DNA of 64,000 bases, from assembly GCA_019057795.1 (NCBI GenBank), contig JAHLWS010000053.1, positions 32,001 through 96,000 on the forward strand. Direction: 5' to 3'. Positions 855 through 9,851 of this stretch are shown in pieces (within the stretch, counting starts at the first letter, position 1; each line of letters opens with the position of its first letter). The notes beneath the pieces are model-generated. The model was not told the origin of the DNA. It searched no databases and saw nothing but the letters and a program-made list of their open reading frames with translations. The translations under genes and the position numbers were made by a program. The stretch comes from Promethearchaeota archaeon (GTDB taxonomy: Archaea; Asgardarchaeota; Lokiarchaeia; Sigyniarchaeales; SOKP01).

Positions 855-2042
855 TTATAAGTCTGAAGGCAATGTTTGTTCAGTAAGTAATCTACGAAAA
901 TGCTTCGGAGATGGTCGATTGCCAAATTTTTCAGTGATAAGCCGTTCTCCTTGGTAAACTAATACATAGTGGGCCCACAATTCATCCGATATAAATTTTA
1001 ATATTGCTCTAATTCCTTTATCAGGAATCACTTTAAAACTCTTAGCATATCTTATTAGCTCATTCTCCGTCCATTTATGAACATACTTATGGTAAGCTAA
1101 ATTACTTTGAAATTTCGCAAATCCGCATCTAATTTCGTCCTGTCTAGTTAAAGTCTCTAAATTATCTTCAATTTTAGGATTGGGGTGAAGCTCTGCTAAT
1201 AAGATTTTCGCACTTTCAGTAGGATCAAATAAGACTTTTTCAGCTGTTACTCCAATTCCTTCTGAAATGACTATCTCTGGACTATAAATTAATAGAATAG
1301 AGCTTTCAAAATAACCTTTAGAGCGATACAAAAGCTTCTCTCGTGCTGTCCGTTCCGTGTGGTGTCCAGGATATCCCTCATGGCAAGCACTAGATAATAA
1401 ATGAGTCCAGTAATGAAATGTACTAATATTGATCTCTATTCTGGAGGCATAATTTCCTCTATACCAACAATACTTTGGCCAGCTTTGATCTTCTACTTCT
1501 AAAATGTCAATCTCTTCGTTATCTGGAAGCAGATTAGGAAAAACTTCTTGCGTTCGTTTTTGTGCAATACGAATTGCTTTCATATACAGCTCTTTTAAAC
1601 GACCTGATGGAATAGTCCTTTGTTTAGCATACCTTGCTATCCGTTCAGATAAAGTTCCTTTTCCCTTATACAATTTATCTGCTTTTGATGATAAATTATA
1701 AAAAAAGTTATCGTTATAAAATATTGGTTTAAAATCAAATAATTTCTCAACTTGCTCTAAATATGGAATTTTCTCGCCATTTAATGTTCTTAAAGTGGTT
1801 TCAATAGCAGTAAGAGTTTTATCAAGGAAATTAAGGCGCTTCTTTTCGAATCCTTGCTTTGGTAATTGAGCAATGAGAGCTCTACAATCTTTTAATAATG
1901 TTGTAGGGGAAATTTTTTCCTCTAAGTCCACTGTGTATTTAAGTTCTGGGGGCCCATAATAATGCTCAACATAACCATTTATATGTTTGTTGATCCTCAA
2001 TCCTAAACGCAGATATATTTTGGCAAAATCATTTAACTCCAT
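855..2042 (-). CDS. DUF885-like zinc metallopeptidase family protein
   Basis: HEGYPGHH motif with downstream ISEGIG; ATG at 2042 preferred over TTG at 2051. Confidence 0.7.
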   Translation of the reverse strand: MELNDFAKIYLRLGLRINKHINGYVEHYYGPPELKYTVDLEEKISPTTLLKDCRALIAQLPKQGFEKKRLNFLDKTLTAIETTLRTLNGEKIPYLEQVEKLFDFKPIFYNDNFFYNLSSKADKLYKGKGTLSERIARYAKQRTIPSGRLKELYMKAIRIAQKRTQEVFPNLLPDNEEIDILEVEDQSWPKYCWYRGNYASRIEINISTFHYWTHLLSSACHEGYPGHHTERTAREKLLYRSKGYFESSILLIYSPEIVISEGIGVTAEKVLFDPTESAKILLAELHPNPKIEDNLETLTRQDEIRCGFAKFQSNLAYHKYVHKWTENELIRYAKSFKVIPDKGIRAILKFISDELWAHYVLVYQGERLITEKFGNRPSPKHFRRLLTEQTLPSDL

Positions 2043-2124
2043 ATTGAACAAGCCAGTTTTGCTATTTTCTTTCTGTCTCTCTCTATTTCTCTTGATTAGT
2101 AGTAAATAGTTAACTAGTATTTTC

Positions 2125-2961
2125 TCAAAGACCTAGTTGCGATACCATCATTCTTTTCAGCTCTTCTTTATTTTTAGGCAAACCAAACATATCTGCATAC
2201 TTATCTGTTGTAGCCAATTCAGCTGACCTTCCTTTTTTTACTGCCGATATTAGATCGTTTTCTAAAAGGTATTTGACATGTTCGTAAGCCCCACTTCCTC
2301 TTAATTTAATAACAGTTGATTTTAAAATTGGTTGCTTCAACGCGATAATCGTTAGCGTTCTTAAGTAACGCTCAGCAATAGCGCCTCCTTTGGCGAATTT
2401 AGATACAGTTTCGGTAAGTTCGGGTCTAAGCTGCATCTGGTATTTTTCTCCAATTTGAGCGACAATTAACGCGCCAGAATGTTCTAAATAATCAAAAGCA
2501 ACAACTCTTACTAATTCTTCAACTTCTTTTTTGGGAATTTCTAATTTAGTTGATAATTCTTCGACATCAAGGGGTCTACCTGCTGCGTAAAGGGCGCCTT
2601 CTATTAGATTTCTCCGTAGTTCTTTTAATTGTATTTCTAAATCTTCTTTCGTGATTTCTGGGGTTATTTGGGGTTCTTCACCGTCTTTTCCTATAATTTT
2701 AGTTTCTAGTTCACTTAATCTTTCTTCTGATATTTCGGAACTTAATGTGTCTTCTTTAAATTCTTCTTTGGATTCTTTTTCGAGTACTTCTTCAATATAT
2801 TCATCAGTATCAATAGTATCCTCTATTTCTTCAGGAATCTTTTCTACTTGAGAGATATTTTCTTCTTCTATTTCACTTATATGTATTTCTTCCTTCTCTT
2901 CTTCTATTTCAGTTTCAATTTCAGGTAGTTTTTCTAGTTCTTTTTCGCTATTTTCGTTCAT
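2125..2961 (-). CDS. scpB: SMC-ScpAB KITE subunit ScpB with a long acidic N-terminal extension
   Basis: IEGALYAAGRPL, LRTLTIIALKQPI, LRGSGAYEHVKYL, TTDKYADMFGL; downstream of scpA and smc. Confidence 0.92.
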   Translation of the reverse strand: MNENSEKELEKLPEIETEIEEEKEEIHISEIEEENISQVEKIPEEIEDTIDTDEYIEEVLEKESKEEFKEDTLSSEISEERLSELETKIIGKDGEEPQITPEITKEDLEIQLKELRRNLIEGALYAAGRPLDVEELSTKLEIPKKEVEELVRVVAFDYLEHSGALIVAQIGEKYQMQLRPELTETVSKFAKGGAIAERYLRTLTIIALKQPILKSTVIKLRGSGAYEHVKYLLENDLISAVKKGRSAELATTDKYADMFGLPKNKEELKRMMVSQLGL

Positions 2962-2990: not shown

Positions 2991-3998
2991 TTATTTTCTT
3001 AAGTTAATTGAAATATTTTTAAAAACTTCTTCTTGTGATAGTATTAGCTTATTGCCCGTGGACAAGAACATAAGCGCCAAAAACATTCTTACTAAAGCAA
3101 ACTTTTTACCAAGGTCGCTTTCTTCTTCAGTATTAATAATTTTGGCTATATCAAAAAAACTTGTTTCTTTATCGTCAAGTTGTATTTTCGATTTAATGCG
3201 GTTAAACCAAGAATTGTGCAGTTCTTCTACCGTTTGTTCTTTTCCACTAATATGCTTCAAAAGTTCTTTTGGTAATTGAGCTTTTGATCTCATTTGAATT
3301 CTTTGTTGTTTTATTTCGTCCCTCCGCATTCTCCGTCGTTTTAATTTTTCTTTCTTTTGCATTGTTTCGATTATGGCAGACCTCATCGCGTCAAATAATT
3401 CATCTTTAGTGGAAATTAGCATTTTTGGCTGAATGGGTTGCGGTAAGGTCTTTGGAATTATTCGAGAATGTTTTTCCCGGAATTTCTCTAATTCTTCTTT
3501 TTTTTGAATTTGTTCTTCTTCTCTTATGATACTCGAAATTTTATAATGATGAAGTACTGCTGATGTTTTGAGAGCGATACCTGCAATTTTATAATTGATT
3601 AAATCTTCATGTAGCATATTATCGAAAAATTTATCTACCAAAGATGCTAAATCATAGAACGCAACATTAGATTCTTTTGCGACTTCGCTATCTAATAGCG
3701 AATTATAGGGGGGTTTTTGCCAAAATTTCAAATCTAATTTTTGTTTATGAATTAGTGTAGGATCATCTTCTTCGCCAGCAATTAATTCTTCTTCAATTAT
3801 TTCCTCCACATCTTCCTGTTCTTGAGTTCTATCGATAAATTCTGGATGAGAAGTTACCTTGCTTAAAAGCTTTATAATATCGTTCTTTTTGGACTTAGAA
3901 GGGATATTAATCTTATTTTTACTCGCAAATTCTCTTAATTGCTTAACACTCCATTCCGTGAAGGCGTACTTCTTTTCTGAGGCATTCTTTTCAGGAAT
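2991..3998 (-). CDS. scpA: Kleisin ScpA; proposed ATT start at 3998 adds an N-terminal SAP/HeH-like module (ORF track start is GTG 3809)
   Basis: Kleisin N domain (LVDKFF..IAGIALKTSAVLHHYK) and C-terminal wHTH (RMFLALMFL..LSQEEVF); frame open upstream of 3809 with AGGTG-N7-ATT. Identity is secure, start is inferred. Confidence 0.85.
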   Translation of the reverse strand: MPEKNASEKKYAFTEWSVKQLREFASKNKINIPSKSKKNDIIKLLSKVTSHPEFIDRTQEQEDVEEIIEEELIAGEEDDPTLIHKQKLDLKFWQKPPYNSLLDSEVAKESNVAFYDLASLVDKFFDNMLHEDLINYKIAGIALKTSAVLHHYKISSIIREEEQIQKKEELEKFREKHSRIIPKTLPQPIQPKMLISTKDELFDAMRSAIIETMQKKEKLKRRRMRRDEIKQQRIQMRSKAQLPKELLKHISGKEQTVEELHNSWFNRIKSKIQLDDKETSFFDIAKIINTEEESDLGKKFALVRMFLALMFLSTGNKLILSQEEVFKNISINLRK

Positions 3999-4030: not shown

Positions 4031-7000
4031 TTAATTTTCTTCTACATTTGTGGGCACATCTGGAAGTTCAAGTAGCCTCTTGGCTTCTTCTTCCAAATCT
4101 ACGCTAAAGATATCGGTTATTCCACTTTGTTGCATGGAAACGCCATAAATTCGATCAGCATTTACAATATTTTCCTCTCTATGACTGATTACCATAAATT
4201 GTGCTTGTCTCGCAAATTCCTTTATAACTACACTGACTCTGTGCACATTTGGACCGTCTAAAGCGGCATCAATCTCATCCATGATGTAAAATGGAGCAGG
4301 ATAAAATTCTTGGACGGCAAATATAAAAGATAACGCAACCAAAGTTTTTTCGCCCCCACTAAGGATCTCCAAACTAGAGATACGTTTTCCACGAGGTCGA
4401 GCTTCAATACTAACCCCTCCCTCAAACGGTTTATCGGGGCGATCAAGAATCATTTTAGCAGATCCCCCGGGCGAAAGCTTCTGGAAAATGCGCGAAAACT
4501 CTCGGTTTATCTCGTGATATGATTTCATGAAGGTTCTAGTTTTTTCCAAATCAATCTTATCAATTGCGTCAAGTATAGATTTCCTTTCGCGTTGAATCGT
4601 CTGTCTCCTCATATCAATTTCGTTGAATCGCTCTTTTACAGTATCGTATTGTGTAATTGCCTTTAAATTAACGGGTTCTAGAGCTTTTTTCTTGTTATTG
4701 GCAGTAGAAATATCCGATTGCAGACCAGATTCAGATAAATCGTCAGTAACTGGGGGTAATGAGCCATAGTCTTTAGAGCGTTGATACAGCGTTTCAATTT
4801 GATCCGTGGTGATAATTTTTTTAGATTCGTAATTATTCAATTTAGAACGTTCCATAGAGTGGTCTGATTTAAGTTCATTCAATTGATTCTGATAATTTTT
4901 TTGTTTTTTCCAAGATATATCCTTTCCTTGAATTTCTTTGTTTATCTCTTCTTGCTTGAGGCTCCTTTTATCGTTTTCTTGGTTTAGATCGTTTTTAACC
5001 TTTTCAATATCTTTTAATATGGAATCAACTTGTTTTTCGGCATCTTTGATATCTTCGTGCAAGGATATAATTTTTTGTTCTCTTTCCTTATTTTTGTTTA
5101 ATTCGTTTAATTTAGCTTGGGATTTGTGAAGATCTTTGTTTAATTTATTTAATTTTTTCTGAGCTCTCTTCTGGGCGTCTAACTCTTTGTTTTTATCCTC
5201 ATGCATTGAATTTATTATTTGTTGTACCTCGTCAACTTTCTTTTGTACTCCGTCTACCTGAGAGTTAAGTCCTTCTGTCTCTTGATTACAACTTGTAATG
5301 CTTTTGCTTGCTTCAACATTTTCCTTAGATAAATCTTCAATTGAATTTATAATCATCATTACATTTTCAAGGCCCCTTAACTTATCCATGGTTGTTTCTA
5401 AATTCTTGTTCTGTTCATCAATTTGTGTTCTTAACTTTTCAGTACTTTCCCAAAAGTTGTCTTTTTCAGAAAGACGGGCTTCTATTTTTGAAATTATTGC
5501 GTCTTGCTCTAGCTTAAGATTCTTTATATTTTCTTCAGTATTGATTATAACATTTTTCTTCTCTTCTATATTACTATTTAATTCTTTTATATTACTTTCA
5601 ATTTCAATAATATCGTCGTAAAACGATTGGATACCTTGTAATTCTTGTAGCTTCTTTTGCAGCCCATCTAATTCTATTTGTTTGCCTTCAATATTTTTTT
5701 TAATTGTCGAAATATCGTCCCAATAAATGTTTTTTAACTGCTTTAAATTTTTAATCTCAGCCTCAAAGTTTTCTTTTTGCTTCTCTTCTACCACCAAGTT
5801 CCTCTGCTCAAGTTCATTTTCAGATTTCTTAATTTTTTCATTAATTTCGCTAATTCTTTTATTAATATCTTCTAGTCTTTTATTACAAGCAGAAAGATCT
5901 ACTGAATCGTGGTTATTTTGAGTGCTAATCACGCTTAATTTTTTGTCAATAGCATTAAAGTCGTTATTTTGAATATTAATATTTTCAGTGATTTCTTCGA
6001 GTTGTTTATATAAATCTTGGCTTTTCGACATAGTTAACTTTCTTAACGAAAGATATACATTTTCAAGGATCTCCATTAAATCTTGTACAAAGCTATCAAA
6101 GGTTGAGGTAGATTCTTGTATCTCCACATCTGCTGATTCTTTTACTTTATCTATTAATTGGTCTATGGTAGAATCAATGTTATCAGTAAAGAGTGCTAAA
6201 GTTTGAAGGATAGATTTAAGAGTTTCAGACATTTCAGAAGCATCAGATCTTTCTTCAACTTCAGAGCTAACTCCTTCAATAGTTTTCATAATATCAATTA
6301 TATCTAAAACAAATTGTTTAAAATTCGTTCCACTGGTTTCGATAGCTTCTGCGTTTGATTGTTGAATGTTGCCCTTTATTGATTCAACGGATATATTGAT
6401 GTTTTGAGTTAACATATTTAAAATCTGAAGGATTCCTGTAATATCTTCTGTGTTTCTTTCGTATTCTTCTTCTGTACTTTCAATCTTCAACAATAAATTA
6501 TCTTTTTCGGTTGAAAGTTCCCCCATGCGTCTTTGAATATTTTCTTTTTTCTTATTCAAATTTTGTGATTCTTTGTCTGTTTTAGTAAGGTTACCGCTTA
6601 AAGTAGACGATTTTAAATCCAATTCACGCTTTTCGCGTTCAAGATTTGTAAGTTCTTTTTTAATTAATTTTAATCTAGTATTGATATTTTCAATCCTAGA
6701 TTTGTTATCATAGATTTCATTTACGATAGAATCTTGTTTCATTAACAATAATTCTAAATTTTGTTCATTTTTTCTATAAGTAGAATCTTCTTCTTTTGCT
6801 TGTCTTCTAAACTCGTTAATATCTTTTAGTAAAGTATCTCTTTTTTTCAGCAATTCTTTTAAAACTTCTTCTGTATCTTTTCCTTTACTAAGGTTTTTAA
6901 TTTTATTTTCAGTAGCTACTTTTCTCAATTTTAATTTCTCAATACGGTCACTATTCATTTTAATTTCTGTATTTAATGAGGATAGCATAGAGTTGAAATC

Positions 7001-8488
7001 GGCTATTTTCGAATTTAATTGGCTCTTTTCATCTCGTAATTCATTTATACCTTTTTCTAATTCTTTCTGGTTATCATTTTCCTTAGAAATTTTTACATTT
7101 AAGTTAGCTACTTCTTTTCTTATAATTTCTGCTTCCTTTTTTGTGCTTTTTATCGCTTCCTCTACACTCTCAGAATCTCCCTTCAATTTATTAAGCTCTG
7201 CTTCTAACTTTATTTTCTTCTCTTCATTTTTTTTAATGTTTTCTTTTAGAAACTTTAATTTGGCTTTATTTGAGGAAATGCTCTGCTTGATCGTTGAAAT
7301 TTCTCGATTAAGTGTCGATTTTGTGTTGTTATTATTTTGGATTTTAGTCTCAATTTCTGCTTGATTTTGTTGTTTACTCTCGATTTCGCCTTTAGTCTCT
7401 TCAATCAAGTTATCTGTTTCCATTATTACCTTTGATTCTGACTCTATTAAAGAATCGTAAGTCTGACCCTCTTCAAGTTCCATTTGTAAATTTTCTAAGG
7501 TTTTTATCTCTTGAGTTAGTTTTTCTATTGATTTTTTAAAATTTTTTAAAGAAGTTTGATTCGAAGATTGTTGGGTTTTTAATAGAGTAATATTTTCGGT
7601 AATGACTTCTCTTTCTTTTTCTTTCTCAGATATTGTTTTTTGTATGTTTTCCATAACTAAGGTTTCTTGTTGTAGCAACTCTTCTTGTCTTGTTAATTTT
7701 TCCTGCAATTCTTCAATAATATAATTAGATTCCTCTATTTTAACCTCCAATTCTTCCTCTTCTTTCCTCAATTTTGAAATCTTTAAAGCGATCAATTGAG
7801 CATTGTAATATGAAACCTTTTCATCTAGTTCCTTCCAAGCTAAAGCATCGTTTTTTTCTTTTTCAACTTTTTTAAGTTGAGAAGACACTTCTTTAAAAAT
7901 TGCTTCAAATTGCCCTAGATCACGCTCGGCTTTTTCTAACTCTTTCATCGTTGCGTCCTTCATTTCGTCGTACTTCTGAAGGCCAATTAGATTTTCAATG
8001 AATAATCTGCGACCCACTTCGTTCATATGAGTCAATTCCACGATTTTTCCTTGCAAAACAAATTGGTTGCTGCCATCAGGATCTACATTAGCTACAGCTA
8101 AAGCGTTAAGAATTTGTTGACGGGTAGCTTTTTTCTCATTCATTTTATAGCCGCCACCACCTCCTCTTTGTATAGTTCGACTAATTTCAAAAGTATCAGT
8201 TCCGCCTGGAAATATTTTTTCGGAATTATCAAAATATAGAGACACTGTGGCTCTATTTGAAGGGTTTTTACCTCGAGAGCCAGCAAAAATTAAATCTTCA
8301 AGACTTTTGGCTCTCATAGTTTTCTTGCTTAATCTACCTAAAGCAAAAGTTAATGCGTCAATAATATTGGATTTGCCGGCCCCATTAGGCCCTACGATGC
8401 ATGTAAACCCTGAAGAGAGCCTTATAGTTACCGTACGATCTCCGAAGGATTTAAATCCTGTCATCGAAATTTTTTTAATATAGGTCAA
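4031..8488 (-). CDS. smc: Chromosome segregation ATPase SMC, 1485 aa, non-canonical central (hinge) domain
   Basis: GFKSF, Walker A GPNGAGKSN, Q-loop FVLQG, PVNLKAI, signature LSGGEK, Walker B IMDEID, ISH; TTG start; operon with scpAB. Confidence 0.95.
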   Translation of the reverse strand: MTYIKKISMTGFKSFGDRTVTIRLSSGFTCIVGPNGAGKSNIIDALTFALGRLSKKTMRAKSLEDLIFAGSRGKNPSNRATVSLYFDNSEKIFPGGTDTFEISRTIQRGGGGGYKMNEKKATRQQILNALAVANVDPDGSNQFVLQGKIVELTHMNEVGRRLFIENLIGLQKYDEMKDATMKELEKAERDLGQFEAIFKEVSSQLKKVEKEKNDALAWKELDEKVSYYNAQLIALKISKLRKEEEELEVKIEESNYIIEELQEKLTRQEELLQQETLVMENIQKTISEKEKEREVITENITLLKTQQSSNQTSLKNFKKSIEKLTQEIKTLENLQMELEEGQTYDSLIESESKVIMETDNLIEETKGEIESKQQNQAEIETKIQNNNNTKSTLNREISTIKQSISSNKAKLKFLKENIKKNEEKKIKLEAELNKLKGDSESVEEAIKSTKKEAEIIRKEVANLNVKISKENDNQKELEKGINELRDEKSQLNSKIADFNSMLSSLNTEIKMNSDRIEKLKLRKVATENKIKNLSKGKDTEEVLKELLKKRDTLLKDINEFRRQAKEEDSTYRKNEQNLELLLMKQDSIVNEIYDNKSRIENINTRLKLIKKELTNLEREKRELDLKSSTLSGNLTKTDKESQNLNKKKENIQRRMGELSTEKDNLLLKIESTEEEYERNTEDITGILQILNMLTQNINISVESIKGNIQQSNAEAIETSGTNFKQFVLDIIDIMKTIEGVSSEVEERSDASEMSETLKSILQTLALFTDNIDSTIDQLIDKVKESADVEIQESTSTFDSFVQDLMEILENVYLSLRKLTMSKSQDLYKQLEEITENINIQNNDFNAIDKKLSVISTQNNHDSVDLSACNKRLEDINKRISEINEKIKKSENELEQRNLVVEEKQKENFEAEIKNLKQLKNIYWDDISTIKKNIEGKQIELDGLQKKLQELQGIQSFYDDIIEIESNIKELNSNIEEKKNVIINTEENIKNLKLEQDAIISKIEARLSEKDNFWESTEKLRTQIDEQNKNLETTMDKLRGLENVMMIINSIEDLSKENVEASKSITSCNQETEGLNSQVDGVQKKVDEVQQIINSMHEDKNKELDAQKRAQKKLNKLNKDLHKSQAKLNELNKNKEREQKIISLHEDIKDAEKQVDSILKDIEKVKNDLNQENDKRSLKQEEINKEIQGKDISWKKQKNYQNQLNELKSDHSMERSKLNNYESKKIITTDQIETLYQRSKDYGSLPPVTDDLSESGLQSDISTANNKKKALEPVNLKAITQYDTVKERFNEIDMRRQTIQRERKSILDAIDKIDLEKTRTFMKSYHEINREFSRIFQKLSPGGSAKMILDRPDKPFEGGVSIEARPRGKRISSLEILSGGEKTLVALSFIFAVQEFYPAPFYIMDEIDAALDGPNVHRVSVVIKEFARQAQFMVISHREENIVNADRIYGVSMQQSGITDIFSVDLEEEAKRLLELPDVPTNVEEN

Positions 8489-8657: not shown

Positions 8658-9851
8658 TTAAAAATTTTGTTTATTAAAAATTGCGTCTAAAATGCTTTTT
8701 AATTGCTGTGGATTTATCACCATGAAATAAAAATTGTAGTTTAAGATGTTGTCGTTAAATTTTCTATAATCGTTAAAGTTATTTTTTTTAGAGGCGTTTA
8801 AAATTCCAATGTTTCTAAGAGTCGTAATCAAATTTTTAAATTCTTCCATATCTTTTTCGTAATCAATTGATTCACACGAAACAAAGTAAAGATCTTTTAG
8901 TTCCTTTATAGTTATGTAAAGGTTTGAGTTTTTTAAGAAATGATTCGATAAATTGTCTAAAAAGATTATTGTTAGTAATTCTGCTTCAGAAATATAAGAA
9001 AGCATGCTAAACTCGTCTGTAACTTGAAGCGAATCGAACTGATTTCTAAGGATTTCAGAGATTTCTAGATTGTTTAAACTAACTTGCTGATTTAATACGG
9101 GATAAAGCTCCCGTAGTATTTCGATCCCTTTTCCTGGAACTGGCACATAATGCTCGAAAATTAAATCTGTTATAAATTCTACTAATTCTTTGTCAATTTC
9201 ACGCAAAAAAGTTAAGGAGACTCTTTGTTTTAGAATGTCGAAAAGTTCCTTATATGAAAAATAATTTAATTTTTTCTTTAAGTCAAATTCACTTAAAAGA
9301 TCTAATGTTGAGGGTTTTAAAGCCTGATTTACGGTAGCTAGAACGTTCACGCTCGTATCTTTACCGTATTGTAATAACTTTTTGAAGATTTCTGGCTCCA
9401 AATGCTCGATATTGTTAAAAATGAATATAAGGTTGTGATCAACTTTTCTACATGTTAGTTTAAATAGATTCCATAAATTTGATATATTCGAACTTATAAT
9501 GCTTTTAAAATTAAAATTAGTATTTTGATTTTGACCAATTTTAGTTAGTAAAGAAATAATAATTTCCTCTAGATTTTTTTCCCTACAATCAACTTGGATG
9601 TTTAAAAATTCGGTGTTCAAGTTCGATAAATCTCTAATAACTTTATTTATAATAACTTGCTTTCCAATTCCTTGAATTCCTTGATATAAGATAGATAAAC
9701 TAAAATCATCTGAAAATGAATCTTTTAGAATGGAAAATAGAGATTTTTCTTCTCTATTGCGATACAATATTTTGGGTGGGACATAATGTGTGTCAAATAA
9801 AGCTCGAGGACCTACATAACTACTATTATTAATCCTTGGTGTTGATATCAT
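8658..9851 (-). CDS. Cdc6/Orc1-like AAA+/wHTH protein with degenerate ATPase motifs
   Basis: FDTHYVPPKILYRNRE, GIQGIGKQ, FSYKELFDILKQRV; Walker B reads FIFNNIE. Confidence 0.8.
   Translation of the reverse strand: MISTPRINNSSYVGPRALFDTHYVPPKILYRNREEKSLFSILKDSFSDDFSLSILYQGIQGIGKQVIINKVIRDLSNLNTEFLNIQVDCREKNLEEIIISLLTKIGQNQNTNFNFKSIISSNISNLWNLFKLTCRKVDHNLIFIFNNIEHLEPEIFKKLLQYGKDTSVNVLATVNQALKPSTLDLLSEFDLKKKLNYFSYKELFDILKQRVSLTFLREIDKELVEFITDLIFEHYVPVPGKGIEILRELYPVLNQQVSLNNLEISEILRNQFDSLQVTDEFSMLSYISEAELLTIIFLDNLSNHFLKNSNLYITIKELKDLYFVSCESIDYEKDMEEFKNLITTLRNIGILNASKKNNFNDYRKFNDNILNYNFYFMVINPQQLKSILDAIFNKQNF

Follow-up and report, generated by a model that had tools for sequence, protein, structure and literature searches.

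A hinge-less SMC protein with a tandem helical repeat at its centre in a Smc-ScpAB-type operon of Lokiarchaeia

The window analysed here is a stretch of 64,000 nucleotides from a Promethearchaeota archaeon of the class Lokiarchaeia (assembly GCA_019057795.1, contig JAHLWS010000053.1, positions 32,001 to 96,000). Its ORF (open reading frame) list and translations place on the minus strand, at 4031-8488, a gene that encodes from a TTG start a 1485-residue protein of the SMC (structural maintenance of chromosomes) type. The five motifs of the bipartite ATP-binding cassette (ABC) head of Smc-ScpAB-type SMCs are all intact; that the head motifs are of the SMC type had been noted in the original prediction, which was made from the sequence alone. 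Walker A (GPNGAGKS at residue 33) and the Q-loop (VLQG at 144) lie in the N-terminal head half (residues 1-170; 7979-8488, minus strand, as are all parts of this gene), and the signature (LSGGE at 1376), Walker B (FYIMDEID at 1400) and H-loop (ISHR at 1434) lie in the C-terminal half (residues 1290-1485; 4034-4621). The protein scores 127 bits against PF02463 in Pfam, 578 bits against TIGR02168 (cut-off 567, hence above it) and 586 bits against TIGR02169 (cut-off 729, hence below it), both NCBIfam matches being broken into five or six pieces. The best PDB sequence match of the heads is Pyrococcus Smc, at 397 bits. Between the heads run an N-terminal arm strand (residues 171-671; 6476-7978), a conserved acidic tip module where a hinge would be expected (residues 672-830; 5999-6475), recognised from its conservation, its charge and a helical hairpin in two structural models, and a C-terminal arm strand assigned by composition (residues 831-1289; 4622-5998). 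The N-terminal strand is glycine-poor and proline-free from residue 136, and no proline occurs anywhere across residues 136-1244. Misassembly and gene fusion were considered and ruled out because 171 database proteins have the same architecture, which is also encoded on closed chromosomes.

The 1485-residue SMC has no hinge, a result on which four methods run with positive controls agree (Pfam, PDB sequence search, profile-profile comparison and motif search), and the same methods uphold the earlier claim that hinge and Rad50-type CxxC hook are both missing. When the whole protein was scanned against Pfam, no SMC_hinge, MukB or Rad50-hook match appeared at E <= 1, the head families being the only ones found. 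The SMC_hinge search had been expected to come back empty, and with residues 640-860 scanned alone neither it nor MukB nor Rad50-hook gave a Pfam match even at E <= 10, where the tip drew only sub-threshold noise from helical proteins such as apolipoprotein and spectrin. A search of all PDB sequences with the 1485-residue SMC matched no hinge structure; the control, a canonical Loki SMC, matched hinge structures down to E 8e-27. In hhalign, the profile of the centre aligned to a canonical-hinge profile through the flanking coiled coil only (probability 44%), and the control, an SMC5/6-like paralogue, aligned with the canonical hinge at 99.8% over the hinge core. Both GX6GX3GG and CxxC are absent from the protein and from all 110 full-length homologues, and its cysteines occur only at residues 30, 868 and 1067. 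The glycine motif was dropped as a hinge test, being a poor one alone because bona fide Loki hinges, in canonical SMCs with strong PF06470 matches, also lack the exact motif. In composition, residues 643-842 hold five glycines and no proline, as against 12-19 glycines in the 200 residues at the centre of canonical proteins. The structural models described below, which are all-helical, concur with Pfam, PDB and hhalign in placing no alpha/beta hinge (PF06470) at the centre.

What occupies the centre instead is a tandem repeat. The interval 6056-6442 is exactly residues 683-811, and within it two 55-residue segments, repeat 1 (residues 683-737; 6278-6442) and repeat 2 (residues 757-811; 6056-6220), align without gaps at 15 identical positions of 55, as originally reported. 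Their local alignment scores 85, compared with 27 +/- 5 for 2000 shuffles, none of which scored as high (z = 11), and with at most 51 for other 75-residue arm windows of the same protein. Profiles of the two repeats, which include divergent family members 24-35% identical to the 1485-residue SMC, match each other in hhalign with a probability of 97.6% and an E-value of 3.3e-12 over 58 gap-free columns. The unit reads approximately L-x2-L-x3-T-x-N-I-x2-S-x3-I-K, followed by A-I-x2-S-x3-F-x2-F-V-x-D-x3-I. The tip is a tandem duplication of a helix unit of about 58 residues, and the duplication is real.

The tip was modelled twice with AlphaFold2, once over residues 600-900 from an alignment of 59 rows (model 1) and once over residues 655-845 from 39 rows that include the divergent members (model 2). 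Neither model contains a beta strand or resembles a canonical hinge fold; both give a single long antiparallel helical hairpin that turns at residues 747-750 (6239-6250), in the variable acidic linker between the repeats. By DSSP the turn occupies model residues 148-151 in model 1 and 93-95 in model 2, and small kinks occur at residue 770 and at 821-822. Since the turn falls between the repeats, repeat 1 is predicted to ascend and repeat 2 to descend, the two packed together in one chain. The predicted local distance difference test score (pLDDT) is about 95 in the flanks and 56-84 across the tip. Residues 602-746 and 751-899 are modelled as the two sides of the hairpin, with residues 602-671 helical at pLDDT about 95 and residues 831-899 helical at 90-95, which supports a long antiparallel intramolecular coiled coil. 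We conclude with moderate confidence that the tip is an extended antiparallel hairpin whose pseudo-dyad would lie perpendicular to the arm. The predicted all-helical, pseudo-two-fold centre is thus borne out by the helical models and the genuine repeat, although its form appears to be an extended hairpin and not a separate compact domain. A Foldseek search of the PDB with model 1 returned nothing at E <= 1e-3; the matches were generic long helical hairpins only (chemoreceptors, SMC arm fragments and dynein stalks), the best being a chemoreceptor hairpin at E 1.9e-3 with a template modelling (TM) score of 0.37-0.42. An ESM Atlas feature search of the tip yielded only unnamed clusters below 0.9.

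Column conservation among the 110 homologues is 0.82-0.96 for residues 661-720 and about 0.9 for residues 781-840, comparable with 0.83-0.98 in the heads (0.83-0.97 in the N-terminal half, 0.89-0.98 in the C-terminal half) and above the 0.6-0.75 of the arms. The share of near-invariant polar positions is 38-41% in the tip and 18-21% in the arms; the invariant patches of the tip include T694/Q695/N696/I697 and F800/V801/D803. With conservation near that of the heads and double the arms' share of near-invariant polar residues, the tip module is under strong selection. The 1030-residue rod contains five 15-residue stretches dense in hydrophobic residues, and three of these fall within the tip, where a two-helix hairpin would be unable to bury them and would leave them exposed. 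The remaining two, at residues 578-594 (approximately nucleotides 6707-6757) and 1033-1054 (approximately 5327-5392), are not opposite one another in a simple register about the apex, and may correspond to a joint, an elbow or a site where a partner binds. The tip carries a net charge of -19 (isoelectric point, pI, 4.1), whereas the hinge of a canonical Loki paralogue carries +8 (pI 9.5). To judge from this acidity, hinge-type DNA binding is unlikely here and would have been lost at the tip.

The arms are also unusually long, and their length is tightly constrained. In hinge-less SMCs of two families, mutually 43% identical, Walker A and the signature are 1337-1351 residues apart, as against 1049-1070 residues in canonical Asgard SMCs. 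With the heads removed, and in the canonical proteins the hinge as well, this leaves about 545 residues per arm strand versus about 315, a 1.7-fold difference in which each strand is about 230 residues longer than its canonical counterpart. By our own arithmetic, the arm would measure roughly 80 nm versus 47 nm, if coiled coil throughout. A shorter hinge-less variant also occurs: P0148 (1296 residues, module at residues 561-743) has a Walker A-to-signature spacing of 1151 residues and an arm strand about 96 residues shorter than the rest of the hinge-less family.

Downstream of the SMC gene, the original prediction placed scpA and scpB, of which scpB is clear and scpA only weakly recognisable. 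The scpB gene, encoding a kite subunit in a long form (2125-2961, minus strand), matches PF04079 at 115 bits and TIGR00281 at 93.5 bits, above the cut-off, and is the sole ScpB above the Pfam cut-off in the genome. Between it and the smc gene lies a kleisin-like ORF of 272 residues from a GTG start (2991-3809, minus strand), a candidate ScpA, which matches PF02616 at E 0.0064 (17 bits, below the cut-off of 24.6) and, in the PDB, ScpA 6ivh at E 0.008 and an Scc1 C-terminal domain at E 0.056. The order smc-kleisin-scpB is kept in a sister-family genome with a closed chromosome (G213), where a 366-residue ORF likewise sits between the hinge-less smc and scpB, and adjacency of the SMC gene to scpB is found both there and in a further genome (G147). 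ScpB proteins of hinge-less operons carry an N-terminal extension, of about 118 residues in the window and about 165 in G213, for which no family match was found; the ScpB adjoining the canonical SMC of G213 is 196 residues long and has no such extension. Upstream of smc, the ORF at 8658-9851 (minus strand) has weak Cdc6_C and AAA matches (E 0.007), which fits a divergent Orc1/Cdc6-like protein, and beyond scpB a 398-residue ORF at 855-2051 (minus strand) has a weak DUF885 match.

The central region has 171 database relatives, and all named ones are labelled Promethearchaeota or other Asgard archaea; full-length relatives measure 1464-1497 residues and PF06470 is found in none of them. Among 301 sampled genomes of the phylum, the module occurs in 60 of the 68 from the window's family and in all seven of the sister family, that is, in 67 of 75 genomes of one Lokiarchaeia order, and elsewhere in three stray bins only. 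The survey of Asgard SMCs that had been proposed thus limits the hinge-less SMC to this one order, barring those bins. Stray matches in G193 and G205, in records labelled Thor-, Hod-, Odin- or Hermodarchaeota, and in one 'Nanopelagicaceae' contig were not counted as a wider distribution because they are near-identical to Loki sequences. To judge by the sequences, such loci, which include L054 (DATKTW010000114.1), L070, L073 and L065, are probably mis-binned contigs or carry wrong labels.

The same 301 genomes were scanned for the hinge. Several genera in both families have a strong canonical hinge, in an SMC of about 1200 residues, besides the hinge-less SMC; the window's genus (27 genomes) and four others have a weak hinge match only, which comes from the SMC5/6-like paralogue. 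Genera g1, g2, g3, g5 and g7 keep the hinge-less operon but yielded no canonical Smc-ScpB operon with a hinge, and the two operons co-exist in g4, g6, g8, g9 and the sister family (f2), a pattern that suggests repeated loss of the canonical complex. Both G213 and G147 encode one ScpB next to the hinge-less SMC and another next to the canonical one. In the window's genome, which is 100% complete, neither a canonical SMC nor a second ScpB was found, and the hinge-less, condensin-like protein is its only ScpAB-type SMC. The idea that a helical module has 'replaced the hinge' therefore needs rewording: the hinge is missing, but the protein is a lineage-specific paralogue with its own ScpAB, and some Lokiarchaeia retain a canonical Smc-ScpB.

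Another SMC of the window's genome, encoded on contig C78 (163187-166555, minus strand; locus L010:7187-10555), has 1122 residues from a TTG start in an open frame of 1166; its hinge is weak but genuine (PF06470, 29-34 bits). Downstream of it, two ORFs (L010:6540-7190 and 6012-6527) encode 216- and 171-residue products, the latter with weak winged-helix matches, and the operon presumably specifies the SMC5/6-related complex known from Asgard and TACK archaea. In a quick tree of head domains, confined to Asgard sequences, the hinge-less proteins are monophyletic on a long stem (Shimodaira-Hasegawa-like approximate likelihood ratio test, SH-aLRT, 100), with an unsettled position among the Asgard canonical SMC clades. 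Most simply, the entire operon would have been duplicated in the ancestor of the two families at the latest, and the canonical copy would then have been lost repeatedly. Because the quick tree leaves the position of the clade open and holds no non-Asgard sequences, it does not fix the time or the donor of the duplication.

The module is not confined to SMCs. A profile search of 1.84 billion representative proteins found it in only 41, which are either long SMCs or non-SMC proteins, 920-1180 residues in length, that open with the module. One of the latter, P0162 (G213, L013:3997-7122, minus strand; 1041 residues), aligns with residues 616-835 of the hinge-less SMC at 27% identity (E 4e-13); others lie at L043 and L044, with representatives P0125-P0128, P0134 and P0138, and are 27-31% identical. 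P0162 has no Pfam domain, and its family shows weak sub-threshold matches only. The C-terminal tail of P0162 is basic, rich in Lys and Thr and histone-H1-like, and the tail of P0125 gives a weak HC2 match. Among the genomes searched, the non-SMC module protein is found in the sister family only, and the window's genome holds no second module-bearing protein. Given the two architectures, the module appears to behave as an autonomous unit, which fits a role in association, whether homo- or heterotypic. It is possible that the non-SMC protein is an apex partner or a chromatin protein.

In the reading that we prefer, the hinge-less SMC would be a subunit of a second type of Smc-ScpAB, derived from a duplicated archaeal-type Smc-kleisin-ScpB operon. 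The paralogue would have lost its basic alpha/beta hinge and lengthened both arm strands by the margin given above, so that some 545 residues per strand would separate head from apex, where the arm would terminate in the tip, a helical hairpin of about 160 residues that is conserved and acidic. Two tips would pack together through their conserved faces, which are exposed and hydrophobic-dense, to make a four-helix bundle, and at this bundle the SMCs would dimerise, as others do by a hinge or, in Rad50, by a hook. At the ATPase heads, ring closure would fall to the kleisin and ScpB, just as it does in ordinary Smc-ScpAB. We favour tip-to-tip dimerisation on the conservation of polar surface residues, on the hydrophobic-dense patches and by analogy. 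Taken jointly, a working Smc-kleisin-ScpB motor, tips joined in a four-helix bundle and a tip that no longer binds DNA stand, in our estimate, about an even chance of being right. Several points weigh against the combination. That the tips dimerise is something we infer indirectly, and the kleisin assignment is weak. The models rest on shallow alignments (59 and 39 rows, with an effective number of sequences, Neff, of about 2-3), and place the tip with moderate confidence only, at pLDDT 56-78 (model 1) and about 80 (model 2). A homodimer would bring like charges together, at -19 per tip, unless these were screened. The non-SMC module protein of the sister family, moreover, fits hetero-association as well as homo-association.

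The tip might alternatively be a docking platform and not a dimer interface. Its partner would be basic and might be, for example, a chromatin protein, the N-terminal extension of ScpB or another protein bearing the module; the two SMCs would then be held along their arms and by the heads plus kleisin. The acidity of the tip would suit such a role, as would the basic, H1-like tail of the 1041-residue sister-family protein and the extra N-terminal region that ScpB has in hinge-less operons but not beside the canonical SMC of G213. Against this, conservation of the tip is highest in the window's own family, where the genome at hand has no second module protein, and any partner would be hypothetical. 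To our knowledge, moreover, all SMC-type proteins have a dimer contact at the apex or hinge, which we count against docking. We regard it as the strongest competitor and, on balance, somewhat unlikely.

Less likely again, and in our judgement improbable, is a compact cap in the form of a four-helix bundle, dimerising or otherwise, in which each repeat would be a helix-loop-helix broken at residues 709-722 and 783-796 and the pseudo-dyad would run along the arm axis. Each repeat does consist of two hydrophobic-dense segments split by a polar stretch (9-15% hydrophobic), AlphaFold2 confidence is lowest at the tip, and an up-down-up-down bundle would also join the two arm strands. In both models, however, residues 709-722 and 783-796 stay helical, no family member has a conserved Gly or Pro at those polar stretches, and the conserved A-I-x-x-S-x-x-x-F spacing extends a heptad-like core. 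That the centre is an ordinary coiled coil whose repeat is heptad periodicity or low complexity, or else a very divergent hidden hinge, is highly improbable and such chance or concealment is effectively excluded: coiled coils often yield spurious self-similarity and Pfam models can overlook divergent domains, but the repeat stands well above other arm windows in both shuffle and profile scores, the tip is conserved nearly as the heads are, and the glycine content, the negative hhalign result with its successful control and the strand-free models all speak against a hinge.

Set beside known systems, the complex most resembles Smc-ScpAB of Bacillus subtilis and Pyrococcus/Thermococcus, sharing the full-motif ABC head, the long antiparallel arm and genes for a kleisin-like protein and ScpB. 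It differs in having no alpha/beta hinge, in a Walker A-to-signature spacing of about 1340 residues instead of about 1060, in the acidic helical tip and in the N-terminal extension of ScpB. With Rad50/SbcC it has in common a head, a long antiparallel coiled coil and an apex without a globular hinge; in contrast, the CxxC zinc hook is found in none of the 110 homologues, the heads are of the SMC type, the neighbours encode a kleisin-like protein and a kite subunit and not Mre11/SbcD, and Rad50 NCBIfam models give 41-91 bits where their cut-offs are 700-1087. Metagenomes of marine Actinobacteria have yielded 'hinge-less' SMC variants (PMC12153180) that likewise have SMC-type heads and neither hinge nor zinc hook. 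By their published description, those variants are bacterial and known as metagenomic proteins only, and the paper mentions neither a conserved module at the apex nor an internal repeat, lengthened arms or a link to ScpAB. Two-paralogue evolution of archaeal SMCs and an SMC5/6-related SMC in Asgard and TACK archaea have been reported (PMC8665677; bioRxiv 10.1101/2024.01.07.573240); in the window's genome the latter is encoded by a gene other than that of the hinge-less protein, on contig C78, and retains a recognisable hinge. In the full-text literature, the coverage of which was incomplete, we came across no account of an Asgard SMC without a hinge, of the tip module or of the arm extension.

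The cytoplasmic signalling hairpin of methyl-accepting chemoreceptors (e.g. PDB 2ch7) resembles the hinge-less apex in being a long antiparallel hairpin of helices, highly conserved at its tip, and chemoreceptor hairpins dimerise into a four-helix bundle. The likeness is a weak, purely structural analogy, as the sequences show no significant relation and neither context nor function is related. Apex folds that depart from the standard hinge are also found in other SMC-like ATPases, namely MukB/MksB/JetC and RecN. The hinge-less SMC differs from MukB/MksB in giving no MukB or MukB-hinge Pfam match at E <= 1 and in the absence of MukEF/JetAB partners, and RecN NCBIfam models score 21-26 bits against cut-offs above 400. 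Nor does it belong to the archaea-specific SMC-related proteins (ASRP, arcadin-4), since ASRP scores 133 bits against a cut-off of 300 and Rkd4 26 against 860.

The hinge is regarded as a defining part of SMC proteins and as essential to their function, with roles in dimerisation, in binding DNA and possibly in its entry, and arm length is thought to be tuned. A widely conserved Smc-ScpAB-type complex without a hinge is a natural experiment on the need for one in loop extrusion and DNA entrapment, the more so as in several genera the hinge-less SMC is the only ScpAB-type SMC found. Reconstructions of how condensin, cohesin and SMC5/6 arose draw on the Asgard SMC repertoire, and counting the hinge-less protein as the 'canonical archaeal SMC' would overlook a derived paralogue. 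Biochemical study is feasible, given that the isolated module has about 190 residues and that some genomes with a hinge-less SMC are closed. It is conceivable, and we put it forward tentatively as something short of probable, that in the hinge-less main motor of these Lokiarchaeia a self-associating helical module joins two 80-nm arms, and that some lineages also recruit a protein with a histone-H1-like tail. If true, this would add to hinge and zinc hook a third solution to SMC apex dimerisation, and would do so in those archaea that stand closest to eukaryotes.

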